A stretch of 64,000 nucleotides of DNA, taken from contig CP158635.1 in NCBI GenBank assembly GCA_050273025.1, positions 5,456,001 through 5,520,000 on the forward strand, written 5' to 3'. The position numbers and the translations under genes were made by a program. Positions 29,201-62,215 of this stretch are shown here, one piece after another. This DNA is from Cenococcum geophilum (Eukaryota). Position 1 is the first letter of the stretch. The number at the start of each line of letters is the position of its first letter. Below the pieces are notes generated by a model. That model saw only the letters and a program-made list of their open reading frames with translations. It searched no databases and had not been told where the DNA came from.

Positions 29201-32200
29201 TAAAAACGCATAGGATACCCTTTAGTTATACTAGATTAATATTTATTTAGAACCCCCTAATTAAATTATCTATAATATAGAAAAGAACTTCTTATCTATA
29301 GAGTTCTAATAATAGATAAAGGTAATAGTAATTAAGGTTAAGGAAGTCCCCGTTAAGGCATATAATAGTATTAAAAAAGTAGAGTAATATTATGCGCTAT
29401 TACGCCATATATATAAGATTATCTCTTTAAAACTAAAGGATGCTAGCAAAGAACTTACCTTATAAATAGCTATTAAAGCTATTAACGATTCCGCTAGCCT
29501 AGATAGACTTATACCTATATTACTAGTCTTTAGCGCCTACCCTTAAATAACTAATAATTCTTTATTATCTCCCTCCATTATATAATAAGCCGAGGCTATT
29601 TATAAGGCAATAAAGGAGGTGCGACGTCTTTACGCTATACGCTAGGTTAATAACGCACTAGGAATAAGAAATAGCCTAAATACCTTAACTACGCTTAATC
29701 TACCACTTTAGTCTAAAGTACGCGTATAGCGTAAAAAGGGAGGATAGTTAGGCCTATACTAACTCATTATAATTAATAGTTAAACTTATACTATTTAAAT
29801 GCCTTATAGACCCACTTAATTCCATTTAACTGTTATTAAGCCTTATTATAAAGATAATAATTCTAAGCCTTTATAGGATGCCCTAGAAGATACTTTAGAG
29901 GAGAACTATAATTAACGTGCTCTAGAAGGCGACTACAATCCTAATATAATTATAGTAGATACGCCACAACTATAACGCGGTAGAGGTCGCCTAAAGGGAT
30001 TATAAAATTACTAATATCTTATTAATTTTAAAGAACAATTTATTGCTGCTATTAAGAATAAAGTTAAGTTATTAATGGCCTTTATAATAGCCAAAGAGAA
30101 GGCTAACTTTAAGCTTATAAAATAGCTTTAAAAAGAAGGTTATATTATAACCCTAAGAGCTCCTTTCTAAGTATCTAATAAGCAGGAGATTAACGGTCTT
30201 ATTATAAGAGGAGTCTTTAAATTTAAGAAGTATAACCCTACTAAGTTTAATAAAGTTCGTATCTTTAAGTTAAGGATAGTTAATGAGATTAAGGGCAAGG
30301 CTATTAACGCCCTATTTAAGAAATTAAGGCTTATTATCTAAGGTTATAATAATAATAGTAAGGAGATAATTCTTATATAATCTCCTATAATTTAACAAGC
30401 TAGTTAACGAGTTATTATTATATTAGCTCTCTCTTTAATAAAGAATAGAATGGCGGTCTATTTATAAGATATTACCTAGGCCTACACCTAATTAAAGACG
30501 CACCTTTAGCACTTAATATTAGCACACCTTCCAGAGCAAATTCGCCACTAATATCCTAAAGATACGATTATAGTTATGCTTAAGCCATTATACGAAATCG
30601 CAGAGGTAGGAACTTATTAGTGGGCTACCTATAATAAGCACCATAAAGAAAAGCTTTTAATAACTATATCTATATTCAATCCTTACTTCCTTATTATAAC
30701 TATAGGAACTTTGTTTAGAATTATTGGTATATAGACTAATAATATAATTATCTTAGAAGATGACTAATTCTTAGCTCTTAAAGAAGATAAGCTAGTAAAG
30801 GCAAATCTTATAGCAAAGCCAAATAAAAGCTTAATTTAATAACACTATTACTCTTTAATAAATATATCCTCTCCCTAAATAAGGGTTCCATTACTTTACG
30901 CCAAAAGGGTTAAGGTAAGAAGATTAACGTTATTAACGTTAATTCTCTAAAGTAGGGATATATAGAGCAACGTGCTTACGGAGCTTATATTACTTCTATC
31001 TATTAACCTAAGGCTTTATTTAATCTTTCTGTTATGGCTTAATACTAGGAACTAACTAAGGATAATATCCTTATCCTAAATAAGCGTCTTTTTTAGTAAA
31101 TAAACCATCTTAATCGGGGACTACTCTATATGCCTATTAATCTTCCCACCGCTAAGCTCTTTATATTTATTAATAGATCGTTTATAAATAATAAAGTTTT
31201 TAGTTTTTAGTTAGGATATAAGATTATTATTACAAATAAATCTATTAGAGAGAATAACTTTACAATCTACGGCAACCTTATTTATTAGAGCTTAACTAAG
31301 AATAAGCGTGTTATTTAAAGCGTTTTAGCGTTAGAGATATATAGAATAGTTGGCGGAGTTAATATAGTAATTACAATTAGAACTACCTTAAAGATAATTA
31401 TAGATTAACTCGAACTTCCTATTATCCCTATAATCGTATACACCGACTTATATTCCCTTTATAAGTATTTAGTTAAGCTTAGTACTATAAAGGAGAAGCG
31501 CCTTATAATCGATATTATAGCACTTTAGCAATCCTATAAGTATTAAGAACTCTTTAAAATTTAATAAATTAATAGCTAAGATAACCTAGTAGATATAATA
31601 ATAAAGGCAAACCCAAATAAGGCACTAGAGACGTTTATTAACATAAATACTCTACGTGTAAAAGTTAAAGGTTAGGTTAAAAGGGAGTCCCTAGAAATTT
31701 CTTAGTTATGTAAGGTCTTAAAATATCTAGGAACTTTAACCGGCGGTTAAAGTTATTTAATTAGTTAGATTCTCTTACTAAGACTTTTTTAAAGGGGGGA
31801 GTATAATAGTCTATAGACCCTAACTTAACCTAGTTAATTAAGATTTTCTATCCCTAGGATAGAAAATCGCTATTAGCTCGCTTACTACTAGTGCCTTAGC
31901 GGCCCTCCGAATAAAATACCTACCCATAACTTATAAGTAAAAAAGCACTACGTACTAAGAGGCAAATTTTAGGATAGTAAGACTTATATTATAATGGTAA
32001 TAGTAAATAAGGAGGATTAATATTTGTTTTAATAGTTAAGCGGTATATATATATAGATAGCAACTATAAAAGAAGAGTTGCTAGTGTTAGGAATAAAGGC
32101 AAGTAGTTACTATATAAGGTATATTGCCGTTATATATAGTAAGTTGCCGTTACGTGCGGCAAGTTGCCGTTACGTGTTGCCGCGGCACTAGCGTGGCGAG

Positions 32201-32301
32201 GAGCTTTAAACTCCTTGCCCTCCCTTATTAAGATATAAGAAGAACAATTATTATACTATCTACGAACCGTAGCTACGTGATATTACCTTGTGTAACCAAC
32301 A
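26226..32301 (+). mobile_element. Full-length GalEa-type Copia retrotransposon #2
   Basis: 217-bp LTRs (26226-26442, 32085-32301) and TSD GTATA. De-RIP motifs MPDTGAAGVST, RQLHRRFGHPSV, KPLYGIAEAGTHWW, GMQTDD, EKRLMIDIMALRQ. Confidence 0.92.
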
Positions 32302-34983: not shown

Positions 34984-37900
34984 TATATATCGGGAATAAG
35001 GCAAGCGGTCGTCACGTATCGTCACGTGTCGCCGCGGCACTAGCGTGGTGAGGAACCTTAGGTTCCTCACCTACCCCCTAATTCTAAACAATAAGCTTTA
35101 TTAACCAACATCACTATAACCCTACTCAAGTAGTCGTTATTAGTAAGTCACCCTATATAACCAACACTAATCAGTGGTTGAATATACAGTCAACTATAGA
35201 GCAGCTAGGTTATTAACAGAAGAGATAATCTTATATAGGGGTGCTATATGCGCTTATATGTATAGATCCCAGCGATACTATACTACCTTAGACTTGCGGA
35301 AAACTAGTAACAGAAGTGTTATTGAGTACTAGGAGATACCAAGTTGCGTCTATTATGTAGAACAATCACGTTTATAAAGATTTGGTCGAGTACTTTAGGT
35401 TAGAAGTGTTACTAAACCTAAAGTCCTAAGTTGACGTCCGAAACGCGTTAAACAATATCTTAAATTGCCCACCTTTAGATAGCAAACCTACGAGATTCTA
35501 TAAAACCGAAAATCCTGCCTATCTTTAATATATAACACCTTGTCGATTCTACCTACTATAGCGTTAATCTATTTAAAGAAGTATAAGAAAGATATTAACC
35601 TGGAGATATAGGACAGAGCTATAACTAACTTTATAACCGCCAAGTAATAGAACCTAAATAGATTCTTAGTATACTGTATAGAACACTATAAAGACAGCAA
35701 ATATAATAATACCGCGCTATAGTATTATATAAAGGAGGACTTTATTAGATAGATAAAGGAAACATAGGTTCCTATAAATAAAGATATTATATAGGACTTC
35801 CGTAACTTCCTTTAAGAGTATAGAGTATTTGTCCCTATAGATGGGGGTAGTATTAAAGACAATATTTAGGAACACGTTATTAATATAAAGGAAGAGTATA
35901 AATAGACTCTATAAGAGATTAAGCACTAACTATATACTATAAAGAAGCTTAAATTATAATAGAACCTAAGTAATACACTACTAAAGACACGTTCTAACTC
36001 TATTGCTCTAGGCATAAGTTCTAATATTCTATATCTATCACCTTTACCTCTATTTTTAACTCCCCTATATTAACTAGCTTAACCTATAGCCTTAATTAAC
36101 AACCCCTAATAAGCGTAAGATCCCCTTACTTCGCGGTCTAATAACCTTTAAACTCCGCCAACTAGATCTATATTACTATTGTAGCCTATAATATAATACA
36201 GCCAAACACTAATTAGAGGCACCTTAAAAATACTTATAGAGCTTATAAAGCTCTATTTAGAATAGGAGAAGAAGTTTAGCGGAGAACTGTATAATATCCT
36301 TAATTTAAAGTTACGTATCTTCTACGACTATTGCTAGAAGGTTAGACTAGAACCTAATTAATACTATATTACTTATTTAGTTATGCTTAAGGGCCGAGCT
36401 AGTACCTTCTATTATAATCGTTTGGTAGGAAAAGGATATAATTTTAACCGAATAATATATAAAATAAGATACTACTTTAAAATAGAGGAGAATAAGCAGC
36501 AGTATATGTTAGAGTAGAGAGAGACTACCTTCCTAAAAATTATTGCTATAAACCTAGGTGCCTCTTAACTTAATTATCTTTAAAAGCTCTTTAATCAACT
36601 TTAGATAATTTAGCGTGGTTTATCTAAATTATATTAAGAGAACTTTAGCTTACGCGATTAAGTTATTAGCGTATATTAAGGTGTTAAAGAATATAACCTT
36701 ACTCTCTTTAACCCTATAAGTACTTATAAAGGAGTGTATACTTAATTAAGATCCTCTATTAGCACTACCCTACGCTCTTAAAAAGTATAGTAATTTAACG
36801 CCTAACTCTAACCTACTTTAATTGACCTAGCTGACTAACACGATTATAACTAAACTGATTAAATATATAGTAGTTATAGTAGGGGATATAGTAGAGGGTA
36901 TAATTAATGTTAACTATAAAGCAATTATAGAGGTCCTTATAGAGGTTTATTTTGTAATAATTAGTAGAAGAAATACTACGTTTATAAGAAGCCAAATTGC
37001 TAGTTAACTAGATACCCCCTTAATAGATAAAAGAAGGCATATAATAAGTTTCGCTAGAGTATATAAAACGTTAGAAACTAAGAAGTTACTATAGCCTACT
37101 TCTAAAGCTTTTTGGTTTAATATAAAGGCGAAGAAGATCTTAAGGGTAAAATTAATGAGGCTGAACAGCTCCTTATGGATATAGAAATTAAGGACTACTC
37201 TTTTAACTAATACTTTACTAAGTATAGTAAGGTAAATGGCGCACAAACCATTGCTATCCTTAATGACTAATCTATACTCTATTCTATTATAAGGTTAAAT
37301 ATCTTTAATAAGCTAAAGGAAAGTTCCGCGTTCTTTTTTAATAATAAATACTCGGCAAACGTCTTTTATAGTATTATGCCAGATACTAGAGCCGCAGGAG
37401 TATCTATAGCAGGAGAACCTTAAGTCTAAGCTCTTTAGTAGCTTAATAGTTCTATCTAGATTAACTAATTAACGGTAGGCTAATATACAATTCGCTTTAG
37501 TAAGGGTACTATAATCTCTTTTGGCACAATTAAGGTCTAAACCCCATTAGGATATATCACTTTCTATATTATTCCCGCGAATACCCCGTTCCTATTCTAT
37601 ATCTAAGATATAGATAAATTAGGTATTAAGCTTAACAACCTTAAGAATATACTTGTTTAGGGAGATAATTAGGTGCCCGTCGTACGCAAGTAGGGTCACC
37701 CTTAGTTGCTCCTTTAATAGCCAGAAAGGAGCGTTGCTTAGAGTCACTTAACCAAGTTAGAGCTATATTAACTATATCGTCGTTTTAGCCACCTATCCGT
37801 TTACTAACTACTTAGGGTTTTTTAATAAGCAGGTTATAAAGTTAAGGTTAAGGCAATTAAACATCTTATAAAGTACTATTATTACTACTAAATAAACCAG

Positions 37901-39549
37901 AAGTCCCCCGGCCGATTTAAGTTTACCCTTAAAAATAACTACAACTTTAACTTCTATATTATTATAGATGTTATATATCTTAGCGGCAAGCCAGTACTCT
38001 AAGTTATTAACTTTTTAACCTCCTTTTAAGCCGTACGCTTTTTAAAAGATATATTAGCTAGGAATATATAGGATACTCTTTAATTATACTAGATTAATGT
38101 CTACCTAGAACCCCCTAATTAAATTGTTTATAACATAGGAAAGAACTTCTTATCTATAGAGTTTCGATAATAGGTAAAGGTAATAACAATTAAGGTTAAG
38201 GAAGTCCCTGTTAAGGTATATAATGGTGTTAAAAAGGTAGAATAATACCATACGCCATTACGCCGCATATATAAGATTATTTCTTTAAAACTAGAGGGTA
38301 CTAGCAAAGAGCTTATCCTATAAATGGCTGTTAAGGCTGTTAATAATACCGCTAGCCCAGATGGGCTTATACCTACATTACTAGTCTTTAGCGCTTACCC
38401 TTAAATAACTAACAATTCTCTACTATCTCCCTCTATTATGCAATAAGCTAAGGCGATTTATAAGGTAATAAAAGAGGTATAACGTCTCTACACTACGCGC
38501 CAGGTTAATAACGTACTAGGAATAAGAAATAGCCCAAATACCTTAATTATACTTAATCTACCACTCTAATCTAAGGTATGCGTATGGCGTAAAAAGGGAG
38601 GATAGTTAGGCCTATATAAACTTATTATAATTAATAGTTAGACTTATACTTTTTAGATACCCCATAAACCTACTTAATTCCATTTAACTGTCATTAAGCC
38701 TTACTATAAAGATAATAGTTCTAAGCCTTTATAGGATACCCCAGAAGATACCCTAGAAGATACCCTAAAGGAGAACCACAATTAATGTGCCCTAGAAGGC
38801 AACTATAACCCTAATATAACTATAGTAGATACGCCGCAACTATGACGCAGTAGAGGTCGCCCGAAGGGATTACAAAACTGCTAATACCTTATCAATTTTA
38901 AAGAGCAACTCATTACCACCATCAAGAATAGAGTTAAGCTATTAATGGCCTTTATAATAGCTAAAGAGAAGGCTAACTTTAAGCTCGTAAAATAGCTTTA
39001 AAAGAAAGGCCGTATTATAACTTTAGAAGCTCCTTTCTAAGCATCTAATAAGTAGGAGATTAACGGTCTTATTATAAGAAAAGTCTTTAAGTTTAAGAAG
39101 TATAACCCTACTAAGTTTAATAGGGTTCGCATATTTAGGTTAAGAATGATTAATAAGATTAAAGGTAAAGCTACCAATACCCCATTTAAGAAGTTAAGGC
39201 TAGTTATTTAAGGTTATAACAATAATAGTAAGGAAGTAATTTTTATATAATCCCCTATAATTTAACGAGCTAGTTAGCAAGTTATTATTGCGCTAGCTCC
39301 CTCTTTAATAAAGAATAGAATAGCGGTTTATTTATAAAATATTACCTAGGCCTATACCCAATCAGAGATACGCCTTTAGCGCTTAATACTAGCATACTTT
39401 CCAGAGCAAATTCGCCACCAATATCCCGAAGATACGATTATAGTTGTGCTTAAGCCACTATATAAAATCGTAAAGGCAGGAACTTATTACATCAGGAAAA
39501 TATTCGCAGGATGAGATTTAAGTAGACTTTGGTTTTCGCGTTTCGCGTA

Positions 39550-39965
39550 ATTAACATGCAATTTAATTAACTCAACACGCAATTAACCAACTTAACACGC
39601 AGTTAACCTACTTAATATACAATTTAACTAACTTAACACGCAGTTAACCTACTTAATATGCAATTTAACTAACTTAACATATAGTTAACCTACTTAACAT
39701 GCAATTTAACCAACTTAACACGTAGTTAACCTATTTAACATGTAATTTAACTAACTCAACACGCAGTTAACCTACTTAATATACAATTTAACTAACTTAA
39801 TACGCAGTTAACCTACTTAATATACAATTTAACCAACTTAACACGTAGTTAACCTACTTAATATATAATTTAACTAACTTAACACGCAGTTAACCTACTT
39901 AATATATAGTTAACCTACTTAATATACAATTTAACTAACTTAATATGCAGTTAACCTACTTAACA
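39550..39965. repeat. 21/42-bp tandem array (ACGCAGTTAACCTACTTAAT / ATGCAATTTAACCAACTTAAC)
   Basis: Alternating direct units seen directly. Confidence 0.9.
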
Positions 39966-40094
39966 ACTTTAAAAGCTAACTGTATATTTCTTAACGTGCG
40001 ATTAAGGTAAAGTTATATACTATATATTTAACTATTATATATAATCTTATACAATCTTATACAATCTTATACAATCTTATAGTCTTATTACTTG

Positions 40095-40436
40095 GAGGCT
40101 CTGCATAAGGCTCTACACGAAGCTCTACACGAAGCTCTGCGTACAGAGGCTCTGCACGAAGCTCTGCGCATAGAGGCTCTGCACAAAGCTCTGCACGAAG
40201 CTTCGCATAAGGCTCTACACGAGGCTCTACACGAAGCTCTGCGTACAGAGGCTCTGCACGAAGCTCTGCACGAAGCTCTGCACGAGGGTCTGCGCGAGGG
40301 TCTGCGCGAGGGTCTGCGCGAAGCTCTGCGTACAGAGGCTCTGCACGAGGCTCTGCGAGAAGCTCTGCGTACAGAGGCTCTGCACGAGGCTCTGCGCGAA
40401 GCTCTGCGTACAGAGGCTCTACACGAAGCTCTGCAT
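40095..40436. repeat. 12/15-bp tandem array (GAGGCTCTGCAC / GAAGCTCTGCGTACA)
   Basis: Direct units. They produce the EALH-repeat ORF 40092-40538. Confidence 0.9.
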
Positions 40437-40564
40437 CGGGTCCCCGCTATATTCCCGATAGCCTCTACACGTGCCTCTACCCTATGTAGCCACCTTATTT
40501 TTTACCCTTCCTTCCTTCTTTATATCCTCCCTACCTAGGGAGGCACCAGAACGGCAGCTAGTAG

Positions 40565-41370
40565 AGGACCGTTGCTAGAACTAGACGACCGTCGCCAGAA
40601 CCAGATGACCGTTACCAGAACTAGACGACTATCGCCAGCTAGACGACCGTTGCCAGAACCAGACGACCGTTGCCAGAGCTAGACGATCGTCGCCAGAACC
40701 AGACGACTGTTGCTAGCCAGACGACCGTTACCAGAACCAGACGACCGTCGCTAGCTAGACGACCGTTACCAGAACTAGACGACTGTTGCTAGAACCAGAC
40801 GACCGTCGCCAGCTAGACGACCGTTACTAGAACTAGACGACCGTTGCTAGAGCTAGACGACCGTCGCTAGAACCAGACGACTGTCACCAGAACCAGACGA
40901 CCGTCGCCAGAACCAGACGACCGTCGCCAGCCAGACGACCGTTACTAGAACCAGACGACCGTTGCCAGAGCCAGACGATCGTCGCTAGAACCAGACGACC
41001 GTCGCCAGCCAGACGACCGTTACTAGAATTAGACGACCGTTGCCAGAGCTAGACGATTGTCGCCAGAACCAGACGACCGTCGCCAGCCAGACGACCGTTA
41101 CTAGAACTAGACGACCGTCGCTAGCCAGACGACCGTTACCAGAACCAGACGACTGTTGCTAGAACCAGACGACCGTCGCCAGCCAGACGACCGTTACCAG
41201 AACTAGACGACCGTCGCCAGAACCAGACGACCGTTACTAGAACTAGATGACCGTCGCCAGAACCAGACGACCGTTACCAGAACTAGACGACCGTTGCTAG
41301 AGCTAGACGACCGTTGCCAGAACTAGACGACCGTCGCTAGAACTAGACAACCGTCGCCAGAGCTAGACGA
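40565..41370. repeat. 20/16-bp tandem array (CCAGACGACCGTCGCCAGAA)
   Basis: About 40 direct units with RIP variants. Confidence 0.9.
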
Positions 41371-41429
41371 CAACGACTAGCCAGCCAATACTATAAACGA
41401 TTCGATCGATCAATCGAATTAAGGTAGCA

Positions 41430-41790
41430 TAGACAGGTAGGCATAAACAGGTAGATGCTGACGGGTAGGTAGATGTAGACAGGTAGGTAGATGCAGACAG
41501 GTAAGCAGATATAGATAGGCAGGCAGATGTAGATAGGTAAGTAGATGCAGATAGGCAAGCAGATATAGATAGGTAGGTAGATGCTGACGGGTAGGTAGAT
41601 ATAAATAGGTAGGTAAATGCAGACAAGTAGATATAAATAGGTAGGTAGATGCAGATAGGTAAGCAGATGCAGATAGGTAGGTAGATGCTAACAGGTAGGT
41701 AAATATAGATAGGTAGGTAGATGTAGATAGGTAGGCGATGTAAATAGGTAGGCGATGCAGGCAGGTAGGTAAGTCAATAGGTAGATAGGT
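41430..41790. repeat. 18-bp tandem array (AGACAGGTAGGTAGATGC)
   Basis: Direct units seen directly. Confidence 0.9.
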
Positions 41791-43740: not shown

Positions 43741-44166
43741 ACGTATTCCACCACCAAGCTGGCAGAACCACCGAGCCAGCAAGTCCATTTCCCTACTAAA
43801 AATCGTAAAAATCATAATATAATATCTTAACAACCACTTAATAATAAATTTTAAAAATTTATATTTAGACTTTCATATACGCTTTGCAGCTTCTATTAAA
43901 GTTGCATAATAATTAGTTTAGTAGTTTTTAAGATATAGTAATTTGGCTATATTTTGGCCCCCAAATTATAATATTTTAAAAACCACTCAACTAATTACTA
44001 TACAACTTTAATAGAAGCTGCAAAGCGTATATAAAAGTCTAAATATAAATTTTTAAAATTTATTATTAAGTGGTTGTTAAGATATTATATTGTGATTTTT
44101 ACGATTTTTAGTGGGGAAATGGACTTGCCGGCTCGGTGGTTCTGCCGGCTCGGTGGTGGAATACGT
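43741..44166. mobile_element. pogo-type foldback MITE (426 bp)
   Basis: ACGTATTCCACCACC...GGTGGTGGAATACGT with TA TSDs. The near-perfect inverted arms are about 188 bp around a spacer of about 50 bp. Confidence 0.93.
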
Positions 44167-46684: not shown

Positions 46685-46769
46685 TATTATAGCTTATTAT
46701 TTCTAGCCTTTATAGCTAGTAAATCACAATATAAATATTATAAATAGTAGTACTAAAAATTAATAAGTG

Positions 46770-47360: not shown

Positions 47361-48289
47361 CAAAGCTCTTACACCTAATAAGATACTACTACATTCTGCT
47401 ATATTCTGCTATATTACCGTATTCTACTATATTCTACTATATTATCGCATTTTACTATTTTTTATAGACCCTAACTTACAGACATAGCAATAATTAGTTA
47501 GTTAATTACAGTTATATTCAATTATATAGTAACATAACTAATCGAATTATAATTGCACCTAGTGATTTTGTTACGTAGATATAATAATATAATTATCCGC
47601 GGTAAGAATAGGTAGTAGTAATAAGAGAGCTATAGTGTTAAGTACTAGATCTAGCGCATATATCGCTAGTAGTAATCTATATATCTATACGTAGCTCTAA
47701 ACTAATTAAAATATATACAATATACGTCTATATGGGCCTGTAGAAGAGTAAGCGTATATAACGCGTCGTGGGTACTATATATAGCTCCCTTACCTTTTTA
47801 TCTACTACTAATCTGCCTTACCTTTACTACCTACGCTTTAAGCTATACCTCCCTTAGCTAATTCCTCTATACCACCTGCTACCCAAAAGAGAACCCATAA
47901 AGAAGCCACTACTAGCTCAATACTCAGCGATTACGATTTGCGTAAGTTTAATGATGTTATAGCTGCTCGCGAGGATCCTAATTACTAGATTAGTGAGCCA
48001 CTACTAAAGCGACGGTGCGCCCGTGAGGATGAGGCTCTTTAATCATTCGCCCTTAATAAGGCTTTAGTAGGCTTACTAGTAAGAGGCAAATTAAAACAAG
48101 AGCTCTCTTACTGTAAGTGGTGTTCCAATCATGGTGTTATAAAATCTTCCTTAAGTATAACTGCTTTCCGTTAACACCTTAAGAATATATATAGAATCCT
48201 TACTATACTAAAGCGATTTAAAGTTAATATGAATACCAAAGCTATACTTACTACATTATTTAATTAATAAGCTAAGAAATAAGTAACTA

Positions 48290-51200
48290 CCCGTGGCGTT
48301 TTAATTTTCGTAAACTTTAACTAACACTACCTCGCTAGCTTGGTGGTTGCTAGTACAGTATATAGGCTACTAAGGAACCTGTTACAGTGCTGTAATAAAG
48401 TAGACTAAATAACTACGTTATGGTATAAAGAGGGGAAGAAGGTAGAAAGGGGGTATTGTATACAAATAGTAGGGCCGGCCGCTAAGTCGCTAGTGGTGGG
48501 CCAGCCAATAGTAGGGAATAGTACGAGACAGTATAAAATAGTATGCGTTAGGTTAGTGCCGTAACAGTACTCCTCTCCCCTAGATGGTTTGGTCCCTAAA
48601 CTAAATAAATAACTTAAAAATAGGCAGTGTACGGGGTTGTTTATTTTCTACCGTAAAGATATTAGTTCCGCTTACCGCCCTTAATTAAGCTAATAGCAAT
48701 TTTCTATGCCGGGCATGGAAAATCCTAATTGGTTAGTTTAGTGAGTAAGGTCGGTAGAACTCTATACCGCCACCTAAATCGGTCCGTATGGCGTTTCTTA
48801 GCAAGAATTTGGCTAATTAGACAACTTTGACCGCCGGTTAAAGTTCTATAACATCTTAACTACTATAAATTTTAATGCGGTGGTCGGCCGCGACCTTAGC
48901 GTGACTTTTCCTTATCTTATACCCAGTCTAGGGGTCCTAGCTTCTTAGGGTGTTGCTTATAAAAGCGCTGTATAGCTTATTCGCAACCCTTTAGGTCTTC
49001 CTCTAGCTGCTAGGTTATATCCTTATAATATTTCCATTTAATCTTATAAGTTAGGCCCTAGGGGTCTTCGTTATATATATTAAGGATTTTCTTAAACTCC
49101 TATTTGTCTTCTATATTGCTATTATTATCTCTCTCTACTACTCGTCCTTGTATATTACAGCGCTTTATAGTATTAATATTTGCTTAGCCAGGGATCTCTT
49201 TAGTAGCCTAGAGGCGGACCTTAGATGTATAAAAGGATTTATTTACTTAGATGTGGTCCGGGAGGTCTATTATAACTGCCCTTTAGTATACTACGAGTAC
49301 GGGGTATAGGCCGTCCCATTTATTGTCCCATTTCTTCTTAGGTCTGTTTGTCTTTATATTTTCTAAGCTAACTATAACTATATTACCTTCATAGAATAAC
49401 GCGCTCTCGTCCTTATAGGTATTAGTATTATCTTTATAGCGTTGCTATAAAATCCAGGCTAGGGCCTTAAGCTATATTAATATCCGCTTAAAGCGGTTGG
49501 CCACAGAGTTTACGTAGAAGAACTCCTTCTTTGCTTGTGCTAATAGTGTCGGTAGGTAGGGGCCAGCAGGCTTAATTCTAAGGTGAGGGTTAAAGCCATA
49601 ATTTGCAAAAAACGGGGAGATGCCTATGCTCTCGTTGACTTGGTTATTCGTGGTAAACTTAGTAAGCGGTAGGTAGTTAACCTAGTCATCCTATATAAAG
49701 CTAACAAAAGCATAAAGGTATTTATTTACGGCGGCGTTAATAATTTTGGTTTAGCCGTCCGTTTCTAGGTGCTAGGCTAAGCTTAGTTGCAAGGTTATCT
49801 TAAGGTATTTACTTAGTTATCGCTAAAAGTCGCTAATAAATTATATGCCGCGATTGGAGATAATTGTGCTTAGTGCACCATGGAGCTTATATACGTTATT
49901 AATAAAGCCATTAACTAACTCCTTTATTAAGAGTCCTGTTACTAGAACGAGGTATTACATTTTAGTTAGGCAGTCTATAATAATAAGGATATATTTATAT
50001 ACCTTGCCATAGCGTTAATATACTAGCAGCGTTATAATATAGTTAATTAAGATATCGGTCTATAGGCGGGCGGGTAATTCTAGTAGCTTTAGGAAACCGG
50101 GCGGGGCAGAATAGGGGGTCTTAGTGCGAAAGTATAGGGCATAGTCTTTAATAAAGGTAGCTATAAACTGGGAGATTCCTAGCCACTAGTATGTTTGGTT
50201 TAAGAAGTTAAGAGTCTTAACCCGGCTAGGGTAACCAGCGGGGCCGCTGCTATAAGAGTAATAGGTAATTTCTAGGCGGAGGTCTAGGGCGTTAGGGATA
50301 AAGAGACGTTGGTGGAAGTAGATCTATCTGTCAATAATACTATATTCTAACTTATTATAATAGAGTAATTTCCTAATTTTCTTTAGCTAATGGCGAGCTT
50401 TCCAATTACGTAGGGCTATTACTATATCTCTTATAAGTTCGTTCTCCTAGTATTCTAGCTAGATTAACTTATCTAGTAACTTTTCGGCTATTTTAGGGTC
50501 TAGAGCGGCTATAAACTCCGCGTTATTAGAGTTACGGGACTTATATAGTAATTCTTCTAAGATTATAGGGTTAACTTTCTAGGGCGGTATAATAACTTAG
50601 GCTTAGTGGCGGAGGCGTTTATTATTAGCGTCCTTAGGCCTTATTCCTAGTAGCCGGCTTAGGGCGTTAGGGAGCGTGGCTTTGCTGCTAGGTCTATATA
50701 TAATTACAAAGTTAAACTATAAAAGGAACTCTGCCCACCGGACTTAGCACTAGTTTAGCTACTTAGTAGTTATAAACGTCTATAGATTCTTATAGTCGGT
50801 AATAATTTTAAACAGCTCCTTAGTCCCTTATAGCTTAGGACACTATTTCTCTAAAGCCTTAACAATAGCTAGGAGTTCTTTATCGTAGATCTTATAGTTA
50901 TATTCCAGCGCGGAGTGCTTTACAAAGAAGAATGCGACCGGTTTTAATTTTCTATTATTATTATACTGGGAAAGGACTCCGCTAGAAGCCTAATTCAATA
51001 CATCTATCTCTACTACTGTTTTCTTCGTATAGTTATAGTATGCTAGTATTAGTGCTGAAGTAAAGGCTCCCTTAAGGGCCTTAAACGATTTAGCTTATTC
51101 TGGTCCCCATAGCCATCTAATATCCTTCTTTAGAAGTTTTATTATAGGTGTAGTAATAGCAGAGTAGCCTTAGATAAATCGTTAGTAGAAGTTCGCGAAG

Positions 51201-54200
51201 CTAAGAAATTATTATAGTTCTTTAATTAATATCGGGTCCTTCCATTCCTATAAGGCCTATATCTTCTTAGGGTCCATAGTTATACTATTAGTTAAGATAA
51301 TTAAGCCGAGGTATTTTGTTTTAGTAGAGTAGAACTTAGACTTATTAATATTAATCTAAAGTCTAACATTGCCGAGTTTTTAGATGACTTCATTTACATA
51401 CTTAGTGTACTCGGCGCGTGTTTTAGAAAAGATAAGAATATTATTAAGGTAGGCAGTATAGTAGTCGTTAAGGGCGTTATATAGAATATAGTTAATATAG
51501 TTCTAAAATATAGCGGGTGCGTTATAGAGGCTAAATAGTATAACTAGTATCTTATAGAGTCCGAACCAGGTAATAAATACTATAAGCTACTTATAGCCCT
51601 CTGCAATCCGGATCTAGTTAAACGCAGTAATTATATCAAGTTTAGTAAAGTACTTAGCGCCATAAAGTGCGTTAAGTGTCTTGCGGATTAGTAGCAGTAG
51701 GTATTAATTCTTAATAGTAACTATATTTAGGCCTTAGTAGTTATAGTAGATTTATACACCACCACTAGGCTTAGTAGCGAGGAGGAGTAGTATAGTAGCT
51801 GGTAAGGTCGATTTGCGGATAAAACCCTTATCTAGCATCTTATTAATCCACTTCTTTATACACCTAAGTTTAGCAGGTAAGAGTGGTCTATTTTTATAAT
51901 ATAGGGCCTAGTTTCCAGGGGTAATCTTAATTTTATAGTCCCATAGTTGGTAAGGGGGCAGCTTATCTATATTCTTAGGGAGGAAGTGCTTAATATATTT
52001 ACTAAACTCCTTTAGTAGGCGTTATAAAATATCTTCGCGGGTTAATCCTAGTTTACCTTTTAGGAATTTTTTAATATCGGTATTAACTATCTTCTGATGT
52101 AAAAGCTTGGGTTTAGTTTTTAGATTTATTTTAAGGAAGTTGTAAAAATAGGGGGGGAGCGCTTTACGGGCTTCCTTTATTGTATAGTCGCCTTCTACTA
52201 GCTAGCAGAAAGACCTTTTTAATAGGTTCGGTACTTCTATTAGGCCTATAGGCAGCTCTTTAAGCAGCTATTAGTGCTTATCTTATTTAACCAGTTCTAC
52301 TAGCTCCGCTATATAGATCCTTATTACCTTTATATCTTTTTATTTATAGAACTGGGTAAAATTAATAGTATAGGTATATTTAATATTGTCCAGGTTAAGG
52401 TATATCTGGCTCTCTAGTACTACGGCTAGGCTAGTACAGCTTAGTTAGCCCAGGGGGGCAGAAATAAGGCGGCGGCCCTATATGGTACGCGCAGGAGACG
52501 GGTATAAGGTTAGGCGTTACAGTGGCGCGGTTTTTATTATCCGGGTCTTAGTAGTTCTATAGCTAATCCTTACTATAACGCGAGCTGTTGTGTGCGCATA
52601 TAGCATATAGCTTAGTTCTAGGTATTAGGCTAGGCGGCTAGGGTTTAAATAGTACCTGGGTTAGGGTTAGTTTCTTAGTAGTAGCGGCATAAAGCGGACC
52701 TTCTTCCTTGGTCTTAGCAGGGCTAGCTAGCCCATTATTTTAGTCTTAAGTGCTAGGTTAGTCCAGTTTTCCACTATCTCATTTCTTTACAGCTGTATAG
52801 GCTCCCCTTTATTAGGAACGTCTTTTACTATTAGGGCTTTATATATAGTCCTAGGCACTAGGCTTAGTAGTACTAAGTGTCTATATAGGGCGTCCCTACT
52901 AACGTCGGCTATCCCCTACAGGAGGTAGTGCCTAGAGTAGTAGTTTAAGTTAAAGCAGATCTTGAGTTTCCTAAAGCTAGGACGGGGCTTATGCTTCTAA
53001 AGCCAGGGCATACCTAGGATAATTAGGGTAGTAGGCGAGAGTTTAGTAATAAAAAAGAGTATGGCTTTAGTATAGAGGCCGATTAACATTTAGGCGGTAA
53101 AGTAGTCCGTAATAAGCGAAGTTAGAATACTATCTACGAGGCGTAGTGGCCTAGGTGCTAGCAGCTTCTTAGTTATAACGTTATACTTTCTTATAATAGA
53201 CTCTATATTAGCAAATACTATTATAGTACTACCGGAGTCCACTAGGCTTACTATATTAATATAAACTTAGGGGTATAGATTACGTAATAAGGAGAGTTAG
53301 GTTTAAACAAGGATTAATTTTTTGTTACTATTTATTAATCTAAGATTAAGTGGCAGTTTACTAATAGAAAGGACTAATTAATCTAGTAATAGGGACCTAA
53401 TCTTCTCGTCTTCCTCCTTATATGGTTTAGACCCTTAGGCGCAACTTAGTCTAAGGGTCTACCTTTTAACAACTAGGGTATAGGGCTGTCTTAGCAGGGC
53501 GGTCCAGTGTCCATCTAGCTGGCGGTGTCTATCTTTATTTCAGTCGGGGTATAGGAAGATAATACCTCACCAATAACATGGCCGTGTTCGTATTCGCTAG
53601 CGTAAAGTCGCTAATACTAGGCATTATTAACGGGTTAGGCTCCTATATAGGGCATAGTTTAGAGTAACTGAGCTATAGGGTTAAAGGGGGGGGGTCGTCC
53701 GCCGCGGCCATAATAGGCTCCACGGTCGCCGCGTCTATAATAGACTTCACGGTCGCCACGTCCGCGGTTATTTATTTACGTCGTTTAATAGGGTAGTATT
53801 AGGACTAGGTTTACTGTCTTAGCGGGGTTATAGGCATCCTTTTAATAGCTGGGCAGGCTATAGGCAAGGCATAGTCTATTATTAACACGGCGCTTATACT
53901 CTATGTCTAAGATTCTATTAAGGTCCATAGGTTCTCTAGTTATTGCTAGGGTTAGGGTTAACATAAGGGTAGAGGCTTAGGCAGGTAGGCGGTGGTTAGC
54001 GTTCTTCTTAAGGTTGGCTTAGTATGTATAGTTTACAAAGTTCTTAGCAAATATATCCATCTGCTTACTCTAACCTATATAGTCACTATTATTAATTTTA
54101 TAGGCTAGTTTAAGTACTAGCTCTTCTATCTTTAGAGAGATAAACTTTTAGAGTAGGTCCACCTTCTGTTTATCTATCTTCTTAGCGCGGACTATTAGCT

Positions 54201-56914
54201 TATTAAGCTCTCCCTTCTAGGACTAGTAATTACGCTCGCCTTAGGGGAAATAGTTAAGCTTATTCTTTGCAACCTAGGTTATATTAAGGACCTCATAGTA
54301 GGCAGTAAGGTCTTTAAGCATATCTTCCTTAGTAGGCCATTTCCACGCAAATATATTATTTGGGTTCTTGTGTATAAGCTCTAGGCCCTACTTAATAAAC
54401 TCATAGGCCTTATCCTCTAGCATATCCGAGATATAAAGGATCTAGGACTAAACTATGTTAAAGTAGTCCCAGTCCTAGTTAAAGACTCCCTTAATCTTAA
54501 TATGCCAGGTTTTAAAATTAGCTTATTATTCTAGCGGGGTGCCTTTTCCGCTAAATATTAGCGGGTCTTTAGATCTCTATTTTTTCTGCTAGGTTACTAC
54601 CATTATTATAGGGGTTAATTGTTTTAGAACGGTAATAGTCTCTACTTAGGAGTTAATAGTTCCTATCTAGGAAGTAATAAGGGCACTAAGGTTTTCGTTA
54701 GCTTTCTTATTAGCGGTGTTTATATTATATATACACTATAGTCCTACTTTAATATTATTAAGGAACTCATTAGTATAGTTAACAAGGGTAAGGTAAGCTT
54801 TGCTAGGCTTAAAGGTCTTAAAGTATAGTAGGGAGCGGCGGATTATCCACGCGATATTGGGGTATGTCTCTATAAATAGGTCTATAAAAACGTCGCAGGG
54901 GTTCTAGGTTTTAGCCATTTCGGCGTTATTAGTATTACCTATTTAGGCGCTAGGTAAAAACTAAGGATTGTTCTAGGACTATACTAGGGACGTATTAGTT
55001 TTAGTAGAGGCGCGTATAGGTCGCGATTACTCTAGGGTAGAGGTCAATTAGCTAAAGTATAGGGAATTAGTGATTGCGACAGGGCCTAAATTAAAAATAC
55101 TATAAACTGTCACAGTGCTGCAATAAAGTAGACTAAATAACTACGTTATAGTATAAAGAGGGAAAGAAGGTAGAAAGGGGGTATTGTATACAAATAGTAG
55201 GGCCGGCCGCTAAGTCGCTAGTGGTGGGCCAGCCAATAGTAGGGAATAGTACGAGACAGTATAAAACAGTATGCGTTAGGTCAGTGCCGTAACAGAACCC
55301 AGAAAATCACGATATATTTACTACTTCTTTTTATAAGGCCCTCGCTGTACTACAATTCTATTAGCCTTATTGTAGGCCCTTATAACTTTACGCGTATTTA
55401 TTTCTTTACGCTTCTAGGCCTTAATTACCTTATTAGCAGCCTTAGCTATAACCGCAATTGCTAGGCTACTATATATAAACTTTTCGTACGGAATATGCTA
55501 TGTATCCTCATCCTCCTCCTAATCTAGTAGATTAGCTAGTACTGCAAGCGTACACGCACAAGCTAGTATCTCTAGAAGGTGATTCTCTATAAAACCTGCA
55601 TCTACAGGCGTTATTGCCCATAGTAATAGCATTTGAATTTAGCTTAGTATAATAGCGGGATTAAAAGGAATTAGCCCTGATTTTGCCCAGGCGCTTAGGA
55701 CTATACTTCTTTTAAATGTGTTAAGGCGAACTTTATATAGAGCTTATAGAAATTCTATCTTATTAAAATCTATATAGCTATTTCAAAAGGCCCTAGCTAC
55801 AGCTTACTCGTACTAGTGCTTATATAGCTAAAAAAAACTATAATATTAAGAGGCTAATAAATATGCGTTATATACGGAATTGTAGCAAATAAGATAATTA
55901 AATAGTCGTCGTAGAACTGTATAAATTGCCTAGTAAAATAGCTGGTGTGGCCATCTAGGATAAGGAGTCAATTTTTGCTAATTTAGCGCTTCTTAAACCA
56001 CTTTTCAAAGTAAATAGCCCACTTTAATAGTAGCTGATTGTTAATATATATAGTGTTGCTTACTGCTAGCAAGTAATTGCCTGGCAGCTTATCTATATAG
56101 TTTTACCTACTAAAATAACAAGTAGAGGCCCTATAACTCCATCACTAGAAATTACCTCTGCGACCGTAGCTAATTCGCGGCTGGTATCCTTTACAGCAGT
56201 AATTTAAAAGGCCTTTAAAGTTATAATTACCTTCTCTTTCTTACCTACGCCTAGGCGTACGCCTATTTCATTATAATTATATATATCTCCCACTATAATT
56301 TTATAAAGCCCTACCACGCGATTATAGTCCTCGTACTAGCGCGATAGCGCTATTAGGTCTTCTACCGCCTACCTTTCTAGCTCCTTAGGATTCTTAGTAC
56401 GTAGGCTAAATTTAGGGTAGCGCTTAAGAAATCTGTTGGTCTAATAGCCGCCACAAAGTGGTGGTTCTTCTAGGCCGGTGTAACGCGATTTAAGTATATA
56501 ATTACACTCCCACTTAAGCTTCTAGACTGTCGCACGCGTTCTAAGCGCGTCATGGCGATGTAGCCATATTATAAGGCCCTTCTCCTTATGTAGAGTAAGT
56601 AGTAGATTATAAGCTAGTAGTCTAAGCTATGCAGGGAGTCCATTGACGCGATTCTTAACGCGGTCGTATTTAGCGCAGAAATGGCGCGCAGCAGCAGCAA
56701 TAGAAGGAAACTTATTAGCTGTATAGGCAGCAAAGGCCTTTTAGACCTTAGCCTCATCTTTAAGAGAATTAGAAGTTATAGTTGTGGTATAATTATCACG
56801 GTTAAAGTTCAAAGTTGTTTTCTGGGTTCCTTAGTGGCCTATATACCGTACTAGCAGCCACTAAGCTAGTAAGGTAGTGTTAGTTAAAGTTTACAAAAAT
56901 TAAAACGCTACGGG
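48290..56914 (-). mobile_element. pogo-type transposon (about 1.7 kb net) nested in the hAT
   Basis: About 98-bp TIRs starting CCCGT(G/A)GCGTTTT with TA TSDs. The minus-strand transposase from about 56780 has YNYDETG, LLILDGHTSH and HTTHICQPLD. Confidence 0.92.
48380..55294 (-). mobile_element. Full-length Gypsy/chromovirus nested in the pogo TIR
   Basis: 187-bp LTRs (48380-48566, 55108-55294), TSD GAACC and PPT GGGGAGAGGAG. Gag, protease LVDSG, RT KLDIITAFN and YLDDILIFS, RNase H, integrase and chromodomain are all present. Confidence 0.95.
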
Positions 56915-59719
56915 TAGGTAAGATCTAAGAACTATAAAAGCCCTATAAGAGTTGGTAAATAAGAAGACCTTTTTTAACTCCCTTATATACTTAATCGTCA
57001 CTCGCAATCTCCCCCATATAATTATTAAGTGGCTAGAGTTTTAAGCCTTTTTATAAATCTGTAACTATACGTTAATAGAAGAGGGCAGGCCCTTATATAA
57101 ATCTCGCAGGAGCGTACCTATTCTAATTAGCAAGACGTTTATAATTTTAAAGGATTATATAAAGTTAAGGCTCTAGAGAGCTAAGTTAAAGATCTACGTT
57201 ACTATTAACTGTTAGACGGCTCTAAATAAGACAGCTTTCTAAGTAGTTACTACTTATTTTATAAACAAATTAAACCAGCTATTAAAAGCTATAATTGTAT
57301 TAAAAGAGCATAAAAAGGTATATGGAGGTAAATAGTAGGCGGAGGTAATAATAAAGGTAATTAAGGAGTACGAGATTCCTAAGAGCTAAATTAGTTACCT
57401 TACTAGTAGGCTTTATTTCCTACCTCTGCTACTATTAAGTTCTATACTAAATATACCTAATTTAGGTAATAACTACGGTAGCAATAATAAGCTCTATTAA
57501 ATTCTGTAAAAGCGCTTCCCTTTTTAAAATACTATACAGCACCGAATTCACTATATTAGCTATATTATTAACCTTATAGTATAAGCCTTCCTTTTTTATA
57601 AAGACAAAGAAGCTATTAAAGTTGTAATTTAGGCAGTAGAGGAACTCCAGCGGGAGGAGTAATACTTAAATATTTACTTTAAAGGAGAGTATAACTAAGA
57701 CGAAGCTACCTAAGAGAAGTGGCGAGAGATTGGAGCCCTAGGTAAGATATATAATATCGCCGTATAGTTAAGGCGTTTAATAGAGCGATATTAAGCCTTC
57801 CTAAAGCTAGCTAAGAAGATACTAAAGCGCGATAATAATATAAGGTGGAACTTATAGCTTCTTATACTAGAGTTAGCAATAAAGCTTAAGACTATAATTT
57901 AAGCCTTTTTAGATTTATACTATAAAGAGATAAGTGCTAATGCTCTTAGTTGCGATAAATAGGACATAATCTATAAGACAATCGCGATTTTACTACCGTT
58001 TAAAGATATAATAAAGGCCTTAAAAGGCGATTTAATAACTCTAAATAAGGTTCTTTAGAGTATAGATTTCCTTATTAAATATATAAAAGAGATACAGCAG
58101 GAGCATATCTTTAACGCTTACCTCTTAGCGTCTTTTTTAACGATTTGGTTTGCTTTTAATAAGTACTATACCTTAATTAATAAAACACTAGTATATGCGG
58201 TAGCCTTACTACTTAATTTAACGCTTTAATGGGCCTATCTTAATAAAAGCTAGAAGACGATTAATAAGCGTTACCCTAGTATAATTAAGTAAGCGATTAA
58301 GGCTACGCGAAAGCTATAGTAGAAGGAATATAAGTTTAAGCTAATTAATGGTAGGTTAACTAGGCAAGTAGATCTAGATCTAATTAAGAATAAATATAAG
58401 AGGTGGTAATATATAAGGGAGCTTAAGAGCCTATCTAATGACGATAAATTTAAACGATTTATTACTGTAAGATCTGCCTTTAATATTTATAATACTACCT
58501 AACTTCTTATAGGCAAATCCTCTACAATTAATTGCCGGCTTCTCCCTTACTTAGTAGCTTAAGCCCTTTTAGTAAAAGCTCTATCTAAGGCTCTCTTAAA
58601 TGGCTATTAATATCCTCTTTATACTAGCAATATCTACTAAAGTAAAACAAGTCTTTTCGGGTGTACAGCGAATGATATTATAGTTATAATATAGGCTTAG
58701 AGCCACGGTAGTTAAATAAATAAAGTGCTTAAAAAGCTAGGTACGCGAAGTCGTTAAATCTAGTAATTTTATGTCGGCAGAGGTAGTAGCTAAGGTGTTA
58801 AATATTAAGGGAGGAGTTAGTAATATGGGTAGTAATAATATAGGCAATAGCTAGGTATTAAATAAGGAAGATTGGCACAATTAAGAGCCTTCCTAAACAC
58901 TAAGAGGCTATTACTAATTTTAAGTAAATGTAGGAAGATCTAGGTAAGCCCTATAGAGCTATCTACTATATTAAAAATTAGATTCTAACCCTAAATATAG
59001 GTAATTAATATAACTACGCAATTAAATCGCAATCGCCTCTCGTGATTATATAATAATCGCAATTAAACGGCTGATTATAATTATATAGTTATTGCTATGT
59101 CTGCTAACTTATAAGCTAATTAATTAGGATTTTCTATACCTAGTATAGAAAATCGCTATTAGCTCGCTTACTATCAGCGCCTTAGCAGCCCTTTTAATAT
59201 TTTTAACCTACTACCTAGTAATCCTTATACTAAGAGCGGTATACTATACTAGAAGTAAGAGTTAAGGTAATAAAGGTTAGTAGTTTTAGTTTTAGTATAT
59301 AGGTAAAAGGCTTTTAATAACTATTATATATAATACTACGTATGCAGCCTCTAGGCTATAGCGCTATAGTTCTATATATATAAATCCTTTTTAGGCAACT
59401 TAATATATACTAGTAGCTAAGTAAACAATCTTACCTAATTTTTACCCGAGGAGTTCTAGTTCGTACTAAGGGAATCCTAGCTCTTTTATCTATTTCTACT
59501 ATATTTTACCGTTTTTAGAGCAGAAAAAGCGCTCTAAAAAATAGACTTTAAGTTTAATAAAATAGTTTTATATATAAAAATAAGAGAAACCTAATAGCTT
59601 GCTAGCTTTAAAGCGCCACCAATTACCTTTATATAACCTTTTTTAATTCTATATCCTATTTCTTCTCCTTACTTAAGAAATAGATAGGGAATTAGTAATA
59701 GTGGTAGCAGTTATTGTCT

Positions 59720-60286: not shown

Positions 60287-60458
60287 TATCACGGATTCCG
60301 ACCGTAGCACCGCCAAGGGCTCGCCTAGCGAGCCTTGGCACCCACAGTATATAGAGCCACGGTGCCTTCGCACCTCTTTGCACCTTCGTGCAATATCCTG
60401 TCGTGTACATAGCCAATGCTACGACGTTCCCAGAGCCTCCTGACCGCGCTCCGTGACA
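60287..60458. mobile_element. 172-bp solo LTR
   Basis: T(A/G)TCACGGA...TCCGTGACA inverted ends, TSD GTATA on both sides, and an internal TATATA. Confidence 0.9.
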
Positions 60459-62215
60459 GTATATTAGATAAAATAGTAGTTAAATAAATAAAAGTTTTAC
60501 TAATGTCCTACTAATATCCTAAAGAAGATATAGTTAGGTAAATAAGGGGTAATAGGTTTTATGTAACGTGTCCCGCACTACGTCGCTATATAGCTAAAAT
60601 AATAGAGACTAATCGCGAATCTATCGCGACTCTTGCGGGACCCAATATATATACTTTTATATTTTATTAGTGTTTTAAAAGGATTATAAAGGGAGCTAGT
60701 TCTCATTTAGAGAAGAATTAGCAATTAGTCTCTAAATAGAAGAGGTTAGAATGCAATTGTCCTTTAAATACGTAAAGCTTATTCTACCTTCTACTTACCT
60801 TTTACTTACCTTCGGCTTACCTATAACTCTTATTTAATACTATTAATTAGATAATTATACGTTCTAATTAAACTAACCTCTTACAACAATATAGTTAACT
60901 CTCGTTATACCAATACCCGATTTAGCAATATTCTTAATTAAATTTTACTTGTCCATTATAAATTACCCTACCTACTAATATTTAATATATTGCTGCTAAA
61001 CCACCATTTTTTATTATGTTAAATTGACTAACACTGCGGTATACTCTTAAGATAGGCCGTAAGGGTATTACTAACGTTTACCGTAAAGCTCTATAAGACT
61101 AGTATAATTACTAATATCCTCGCCCGCGTTAAAAAGCGAATATTATATAGTTTAAGAAGAAGCTTTAATACTAAATAAACTAGTTAATAGTCTTAGAAAG
61201 TTATAGTAACTATTACCAATACCTTAACACAATATCCTCCTTATTAGCGACTTAGTTAATTAAGGCACGGATATATTAAGAGAGACGCGTAAGCCTGTAT
61301 AATTAGATTGTCTATAAACGAGGATCTAGAGCTAGAAAAAGGAAAGAAGAAGAAGAGTGGCGCTGGTTAAAGTAGGGTTCTTTTATACAGTCTTCTAGTT
61401 ACGTAACTATAGCAATTTTCTATACCAGGTATAGAAAATCCTAATTAGTTAGTAGAAGTTAGGGTCCGTAGAATATAGCAAGTAGTATACCCTAGCACTA
61501 TTATAGTTAGATTCTTAATATAGGAAGCCTATAGAAATTTCTTAATCTACCTAAGGAGAATAGCATTAAATAAAGGGGGAAGATAAGCCCTAAGCAGTAA
61601 TTAATTATTATACTAGTGTAGAGGTATTTAGTAACGACGATTAGGAGTATATTGTTATAGGATACCCCCATAACATCTTGTACACATCTACCTGTTTTTA
61701 CCGACTTAGCAATTAGAAATTAACCGCGAAATAGTAATCTAATAGCAATCTAATAGCAATCTAACGGTAATCTACGGCATTCTGCTATATTCTGCTAAGT
61801 TCTACTAAATTCTACTAAGTTCTGCTAGGATTATAACCTAAACCCTATTCTACCCTATGTACATATTAACTAAGCAACTAAGTTAATAATATATGCCCTT
61901 TTTTCCCATTTTCCTACCTTCTCTCCTTACGCAACGTCTTAACCTCCTTATATAGTTTATATATATATAGCTTAATAATATCTACTTTGCTATATATTAT
62001 CGCCGCTTATACTTACTCTGCAATACTATATTACGTTAACTTTATATACCACCACTAAAATATAAAGCAACTCTAAAACCCCTATAATAGCCGCCGGCAT
62101 TATATCTATACTTTAAAAATAACTAGTAGAGATATAGAAGTCTTTTATAAACGCTCTTATATAAAACTAAGTCACTTTAAATTAATAATAAGCCGAATAA
62201 GAAGCATAATACTAG

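Follow-up and report, generated by a model that had tools for sequence, protein, structure and literature searches.

Two separable CCAAT-linked palindromes traded among Gypsy, Copia, and tyrosine-recombinase retroelements in the genome of Cenococcum geophilum

Why should unrelated retroelements carry the same palindromes in their non-coding 3′ regions? The question is raised by a stretch of 64,000 nucleotides from Cenococcum geophilum (contig CP158635.1, positions 5,456,001–5,520,000; the whole stretch is called the window below, and positions are given in its own numbering), in which two palindromes, P1 and P2, recur in elements of the Gypsy and Copia superfamilies. A preliminary description had read them as one double module, a cis-cassette exchanged between classes of transposable elements (TEs) and placed near their 3′ ends. 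Exchange and 3′-end bias were both supported and were found to extend to a third order of retroelements and to the long terminal repeats (LTRs), but what is exchanged is two separate units and not one module. P1 and P2 are palindromic units linked to CCAAT that also occur apart; Gypsy, Copia, and tyrosine-recombinase (YR) retroelements have exchanged them, and they are confined to 3′ ends and LTRs. All eight palindromes described for the window were present, and six of them form three P1–P2 pairs:

31732–31754, plus strand: P1 copy A, with a mutated minus-strand CCAAT box at 31760–31764.
31842–31868, plus strand: P2 copy A, C..G form, with mutated CCAAT boxes at 31834–31838 (plus) and 31872–31876 (minus).
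43208–43230, plus strand: P1 copy B, with a mutated minus-strand CCAAT box at 43236–43240.
43329–43355, plus strand: P2 copy B, C..G form, with an intact CCAAT at 43321–43325 and a mutated box at 43359–43363 (minus).
48823–48845, minus strand: P1 copy C.
48698–48724, minus strand: P2 copy C, G..C form, with an intact CCAAT at 48728–48732 (minus).

The distance between the centres of P1 and P2 was 112 bp in copy A and 123 bp in both copy B and copy C. Five copies had originally been counted as a module of Copia and Gypsy 3′ untranslated regions (UTRs); these three contain both units, and the other two, at 59128 and 61414, are P2 alone.

The least-mutated natural P1 was AACTTCGACCG-S-CGGTCGAAGTT (loci L039, L257, and L268), with arms of 11 bp, and the least-mutated natural P2 was GATTTTCCAT-SCC-C-GGS-ATGGAAAATC, with arms of 13 bp; the TTTGAC form first given for P1 turned out to be half-mutated. 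Only C or G was found at the centre of P1 (144 of 144 copies). The genome containing the window (G000; 178 Mb, seven contigs) shows a strong dinucleotide bias of the type left by repeat-induced point mutation (RIP), and sites were counted in it with RIP-tolerant patterns and with the reversed patterns as controls, which gave 2,846 sites for P1 and 2,002 for P2 versus 0 for each control. A P1 variant with a 2-nt centre was present at 21 sites in this genome; many of these copies were little mutated (L355, L356), and RNA contigs 948 and 1460 nt long contained the variant as well. Palindromes of the size of P1 and P2 are as such modestly above chance (six in the window, five of them P1 or P2, versus 0–2 in 15 resamplings), and the weight lies in their recurrence across unrelated hosts.

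To describe these hosts, 60 loci were fetched around the first listed P1/P2 sites of contig C1, irrespective of family, and gave 74 sites, a sample in which choice by palindrome pattern inflates the apparent conservation of the palindromes and all copies share ancestry. All 74 sites were in retroelements, at 3′ ends or in LTRs, and none had a LINE or DNA transposon as host. Gypsy 3′ UTRs held 44 of the sites, in six context families, and 3′ UTRs of GalEa (Copia) elements held 22; four were in the U3 part of Gypsy LTRs, two in a Ngaro-like element, one in another Copia element, and one in an unclassified gag/protease-like family. A pol match was found within 900 bp upstream of 60 of the 74 sites, at least one such pol belonging to a neighbouring element. 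The arrangements comprised P1 alone, P2 alone, P1+P2, P1 with inverted P2, both inverted, and P2–P2, so that the sense orientation initially ascribed to the module is not general. At least 123 metagenome loci showed the exact CCAAT+P2 pattern, mostly in the same families, and the sequencing runs containing L257 carried two organism codes sharing a species label, plus root and fungus metagenomes. Exact P2 was found neither in viral contigs nor in prokaryote genomes, and exact P1 was not found in viral contigs. An unclassified family with inverted P2 (L182, L147, L044, L319–L346) was frequent among the 41 unmutated P2 copies; L182 has a 795-aa open reading frame (ORF) without a match in Pfam or PHROG, and L147 gave protease hits below threshold only.

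Within the window, the host elements and the parts of them that bear on the exchange are the following (TSD, target-site duplication):

26226–32301, plus strand: host A, a GalEa (Copia) element, LTRs at ~26226–26442 and 32085–32301, TSD GTATA.
26443–26451: CHS-type 9-mer CTAATTAGT (CHS, Conserved Hairpin Site), directly after the 5′ LTR of host A.
31688–31799, plus strand: Gypsy-derived block in host A, from alignment with Gypsy L052 and the P1-less Gypsy L124.
34988–43711, plus strand: host B, a GalEa element, LTRs at ~34988–35166 and 43533–43711, TSD GTATA, interrupted at ~39490–42111.
35167–35175: CHS-type 9-mer CTAATCAGT, directly after the 5′ LTR of host B.
43448–43495, plus strand: pyrimidine-rich tail in the 3′ UTR of host B, matching the 3′ half of a P2-bearing Gypsy LTR (that of L040).
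48380–55294, minus strand: host C, a Gypsy element, LTRs at ~55106–55294 and 48380–48566, TSD GAACC, pol ending near 48917.
59104–59326, minus strand: 3′-end remnant (~220 bp) of a Ngaro-like (tyrosine-recombinase) retroelement, 78–86% identical to L137, L177, and L063, with P2 alone (59128–59154), inverted relative to the host.
61242–61505, minus strand: chimeric Gypsy-type LTR, composed of a P2-bearing U3 half (P2 at 61414–61440) and the TATA-bearing half of another LTR lineage, with the TATA box TATAAAAG at 61380–61387, 26 nt after P2.

Hosts A and B are GalEa elements as judged from a Copia-type reverse transcriptase (RT) in L256, a close relative of host A (RVT_2, E 3e-10), and from a CHS in place of the primer-binding site. 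The pol of host C matches Gypsy references across ~930–1000 aa, and its chromodomain gave a weak Chromo match below the cut-off (E 0.018). The family to which the remnant at 59128 belongs appears Ngaro-like, with RT plus tyrosine recombinase: its relatives contain a gag-like ORF, an RT (RVT_1 in L137, E 2e-7), a tyrosine recombinase, and a duplicated 3′ repeat. The YR assignment is based on the relative P0006 (PF00589) at 43% identity, direct searches of the YR protein in Pfam, PHROG, PDB, and a protein atlas having been blank or unspecific. Ngaro elements have the repeat order A-pol-B-A-B (PMC3783388, the part considered); the duplicated 3′ repeat was seen in L059, L063, and L177, in loci that did not reach the 5′ copy. 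These loci and L137 represent a Ngaro-like retroelement in a filamentous ascomycete, and the part of the main text of PMC3783388 that was considered makes no mention of Pezizomycotina or Dothideomycetes. The chimeric LTR was found in the window only, among the loci examined.

How the units moved can be read from the junctions. The Gypsy-derived block of host A provides the pol stop (31703–31705), P1, and a relic Gypsy polypurine tract (31786–31799), and since it matches the 3′ end of Gypsy L052, with the same stop and the relic purine tract, a transfer from Gypsy to GalEa is indicated. The P1+P2 block of host B matches that of Gypsy host C, and the alignment claimed beforehand between the 43208 (Copia) and 48845 (Gypsy) copies proved to be real (255 columns, 76%). 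The LTRs of a large Gypsy group themselves contain P2, 45–105 bp from the TG start, in 5′, 3′, and solo copies, and P2 is thus in part ordinary U3 sequence of Gypsy LTRs; sister LTRs (L121, host C) have the downstream box in common without P2, and P1 was found in no LTR among the loci classified. GalEa UTRs contain such LTRs to different extents: whole in L074, trimmed in the L146 group, and as the last bases of a P2-bearing LTR in the L161 group. Among other Copia elements, L253 equals the family of L117 with an insert of ~100 bp around P2, which is missing from L117, L119, and L132. GalEa, other Copia, other Gypsy, and Ngaro-like elements have thus taken up pieces of Gypsy LTRs and 3′ UTRs with units, which were then trimmed and shuffled. 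The junctions would fit both nested insertion with later deletion at microhomologies and template switching.

The CCAAT boxes were counted in copies of this genome not chosen by a CCAAT pattern, allowing for RIP changes. P2 has a box 3 nt outside each end, kept in 122 of 123 and 113 of 123 copies, and P1 has a single box 5 nt outside one end, kept in 122 of 124 copies, with none in 124 at the mirror position. The proposed linkage of the palindromes to CCAAT holds, although a box on the inner side of each does not describe it, P2 being boxed on both sides and P1 on one. The box of P1 has no pairing partner. Spacers slightly farther out differ between contexts while the boxes persist, and several deletions stop at the boxes (L039, L345, L347, L353). 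All three unmutated boxes (CCAATCA, CCAATGG, and CCAATAG) fit CCAATVR, the consensus of the site of the CCAAT-binding complex (CBC; PMC7144946, as far as the source was considered). In the same part of that source, CBC occupies 13 nt following CCAAT, and the 7 bp beyond these are the stretch preferred by HapX, its partner. A 7-bp GC-rich core is present at +14 to +20 from CCAAT in P1 and, in P2, on either strand (CCG-S-CGG in P1, SCC-C-GGS in P2). The units resemble the CBC:HapX sites of Aspergillus (PMC7144946, in the part considered) in the CCAATVR box, the 13 bp under CBC, and the 7 bp for a partner at +14 to +20, and the difference between overlapping and adjacent half-sites has a parallel in the P1 variant whose centre is 2 nt long. 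They differ from them in their GC-rich cores, which are not TTAN/TGAN half-sites, in having no RWT at +13 to +15, in arms that reach 11 and 13 bp, and in their location in retroelements.

We consider it rather probable that P1 and P2 are composite DNA enhancer sites for CBC plus a partner, which recombination has spread among retroelements and selection has kept, a prediction drawn from sequence. Each unit would offer a CCAAT box to the CCAAT-binding complex of the host (CBC/HAP/NF-Y) and, right after the 13 bp covered by it, a 7-bp GC-rich dyad core to a putative dimeric partner, with P2 bearing the box-core arrangement on both strands. In U3 of some Gypsy families P2 occupies the normal promoter position, from which other elements may have captured it via nested insertion with subsequent microhomology deletion and via template switching in reverse transcription. 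Elements with an intact unit near the 3′ end may have been better transcribed or kept open and, consequently, amplified, and this advantage would have preserved cores, boxes, and a spacing approximately in phase, even as the spacer sequences were replaced. Acting from ~5–6 kb off the 5′ LTR, the units might work through LTR–LTR looping, chromatin opening, or antisense transcription. Most genomic copies have RIP-damaged boxes and are probably dead.

The enhancer reading is favoured because P2 occurs inside paired and solo Gypsy LTRs and, at 61414, 26 nt before a TATA box; because CCAATVR boxes are kept, that of P1 without a pairing partner; because the cores of both unrelated palindromes fall in the HapX-type slot at +14 to +20; and because deletions end right at the boxes. 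It is further favoured by units found alone, paired, inverted, and in tandem, by spacings of 42–133 bp that lean to whole turns, and by the GalEa elements picked by pol (the best 30 of 150 scored matches). Among these, P2 was present in 30 of 30 and P1 in 23 of 30, and P2 was kept across a dozen or so different mosaics of their UTRs, in inverted orientation in one. Of the functions suggested beforehand for the cassette, an enhancer fits best, whereas a hitch-hiking mini-element does not fit.

The tendency of the spacings to whole helical turns is supportive, not decisive. Centre distances were 42, 72, 73, 83, 94, 102 (P2–P2), 104, 105, 112–115, 123, and 133 bp; those available before a census of distances were periodic at ~10.15 bp (R 0.83–0.90), and the census from 40 to 70 bp gave the known 42 bp only. 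With a class at 127 bp included, the distances favoured whole turns of ~10.35 bp (p 0.00015–0.031 for four ways of counting classes, which are partly related by descent).

A number of observations weigh against the enhancer reading. The class at 127 bp (seven copies), the one new class in the census from 126 to 156 bp, missed the phasing predicted beforehand at 10.15 bp, and when any period of 6–20 bp was allowed, p rose to 0.006–0.37. The HapX motifs (RWT after 12 bp, and a TKAN half-site) are absent from P1 and P2, and a strict half-site pattern revealed no precedent among host promoters. The presence of P2 in 30 of 30 GalEa elements is partly shared descent, because these form one close clade. 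At 30 loci picked by chromodomain, two of which look like host genes, P1 was found within 1.3 kb in nine and P2 in seven, and neither unit was within that distance in 21; among 18 young elements, three carry a unit and 15 carry neither. The units are therefore not required. Every site is also located in the 3′ end of an element RNA, and no LINE or DNA transposon is a host, which fits an account based on RNA or particles. Finally, downstream long-range enhancers are unusual in fungi. An origin in host promoters gained no support from the strict half-site pattern, all four hits of which were damaged P2 copies in elements.

The centre of P2 bears on two other explanations. The covarying x/y bases had been described as C/G in Copia and G/C in Gypsy copies. 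Their symmetry was kept in 291 of 291 distinct P2 copies, but the forms are not specific to a superfamily: 12 of 30 two-flank context classes contain both, which indicates repeated swapping or conversion of the centre. This recurrence of both haplotypes between fixed flanks, together with the C/G centre of P1 in all 144 copies, suggests repeated conversion at the apex, as would be expected of a neutral or selfish hitch-hiker whose hairpins stall reverse transcriptase or form cruciforms and so become recombination hot spots that copy themselves without benefit to the host element. The many successful young families without units agree with such a hitch-hiker, as do the shared ancestry of the copies and the inflation of conservation by palindrome-based sampling. 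We nevertheless regard it as improbable, as it leaves unexplained that CCAAT boxes outside the palindromes are kept while spacers vary, that the distance from box to core is equal in two unrelated palindromes, and that spacings tend to whole turns.

It seems similarly improbable that P1 and P2 are RNA elements, that is, hairpins at the 3′ end of the genomic RNA with a role in its export, stability, packaging, or dimerisation, which are exchanged when RNAs are packaged together. U3 and 3′ UTR both correspond to the RNA 3′ end, all hosts are reverse-transcribed elements of the LTR and YR types, and a palindrome is the same in both orientations, so that inversion is compatible with this account. 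The concordance of x and y in 291 of 291 copies also speaks for RNA, but it concerns a single pair, 6 bp apart, with two haplotypes, and the covariation sought in the preliminary description consequently gives weak support for an RNA structure. Folding of the L257 UTR gave z -2.94, with the P2 stem extended by CCAAT/ATTGG pairing; this low energy is due to the palindromes themselves. The CCAAT box of P1 is kept without a partner, a small hairpin beside P1 is broken in the Gypsy C-type copies, and neither the common +14 to +20 geometry nor the turn-spaced distances have an RNA rationale. Retroviral dimer signals are unlike odd-length palindromes in a 3′ position. Their location is in a loop (PMC5445492, in the part considered). 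Rfam gave no match at gathering score in the window, where the copies are RIP-mutated.

As for RNA libraries, a P2 contig of 177 nt with L120 Copia flanks had depths of 633 and 1056 in two metatranscriptome assemblies, compared with 2–28 for GalEa pieces. This would suit an RNA element, but such contigs have no strand and may include DNA, and DNA and RNA functions are indistinguishable from depth. On L257, the reads from run X21 (29, too few to bear on promoter activity) formed no cluster of starts or ends. Most of the signal on P2 in RNA came from the family of L120, L045, and L327, a young Copia family with LTRs 99.4% identical and an inverted P2 just before the 3′ LTR.

A nested mini-transposon inserting into retroelement 3′ ends, whether a miniature inverted-repeat transposable element (MITE) or another non-autonomous DNA transposon, would account for the high copy number and the internal palindromes, but it is very improbable and largely refuted, because constant ends, terminal inverted repeats, and TSDs are absent around the units, P1 and P2 occur separately, and 74 of 74 sites are in retroelement contexts common to whole subfamilies. 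Of the two outcomes named beforehand as speaking against an exchanged cassette, neither a MITE with its own TSDs at random positions nor a lack of both covariation and 3′-positional bias was observed.

CCAAT boxes in the U3 enhancers of LTRs, and exchange of enhancers or LTRs between related retroelements, are known. P2 resembles these in its presence in U3 of several Gypsy families, in capture by recombination, and in tandem duplication; the exchange of P1 and P2 differs in spanning superfamilies and orders and in mostly ending in the 3′ UTR, outside the LTR. The endoplasmic reticulum stress response element (ERSE) CCAAT-N9-CCACG has been described from animals and plants. P2 contains CCAAT-N9-CCAT(G/C) on both strands, with one mismatch in the partner half, and P1 has no match. 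In VANC-bound motifs of VANDAL transposons and in the gypsy insulator, protein-binding motifs favour expression of the element or shield it. P1 and P2 are likewise non-coding motifs inside elements; those motifs, however, are family-specific, whereas P1 and P2 are common to unrelated groups and their binding is putative. The CHS of GalEa, a GalEa-specific 9-bp palindrome right after the 5′ LTR (PMC5445492, in the part considered), is also a non-coding palindrome common to families within a species, and the RIP-mutated P1 flank CTAATTAG resembles CHSeq1 as given in that part. P1 and P2 are not the CHS, as they lie 3′ of pol, and hosts A and B carry the CHS separately after the 5′ LTR.

No earlier description of the P1/P2 units was found in the literature searched, a scope that did not include subscription journals, Repbase, Dfam, or supplements. 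The part of PMC5445492 considered describes the 5′ CHS only, and in the part considered of the main text of a TE survey of a comparably repeat-rich, RIP-affected ascomycete (PMC12910237) the terms palindrom, CCAAT, enhancer, and UTR have no occurrences. Cross-lineage exchange is here documented at nucleotide level in thousands of copies, with its direction visible at junctions. Copia, Gypsy, and YR retroelements are usually treated as separate lineages in non-coding DNA. If the units are enhancers, CBC is predicted to have a new partner for a GC-rich dyad core, a case of 3′-located enhancer action in a filamentous fungus would be at hand, and there would be a direct way to ask whether a RIP-competent fungus owes its genome-wide burst of retroelements to a host-factor site that they share; even if neutral, they mark which elements meet during reverse transcription. 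A wider proposal is possible but doubtful: two tradeable putative units of CBC plus dimeric factor, acting from the 3′ end and arranged in helical phase, would form a shared pool traded repeatedly among three retroelement orders, by which unrelated families were co-activated or shielded from silencing, so that the expansion of the genome rode on one cis-regulatory innovation.

Several further features were seen in the window and elsewhere in the genome. Upstream of P2, 10-bp TTCTGCCA repeats and recurrent GCCAAG motifs, which we take to be PacC-like, were found in L137, L145, L205, and other P2 contexts and suggest further phased sites. G000:C7:1-1000000 contains a cluster of the best-preserved copies of Gypsy, GalEa, and LINE elements, as if the start of contig C7 had largely escaped RIP. 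A Gypsy element without P1 or P2 adjoins host A at 19511–26008. An odd-length palindrome with GTGAGGAACC arms is present in the GalEa LTR at 35048–35070 and occurs in other GalEa LTRs too. The insertion in host B (39490–42111) contains several tandem arrays with units of 12, 18, 20, and 41 bp, and a fold-back just after host B (43737–44332; 210-nt arms, 94% identity) carries the 12-bp repeat of this insertion in inverted form. Host C is enclosed by 96-nt inverted repeats (91%) at 48284–48379 and 56825–56920, possibly those of a DNA transposon into which it inserted. A GC-rich 15-bp tandem array at 11130–11708 has open frames on both strands.

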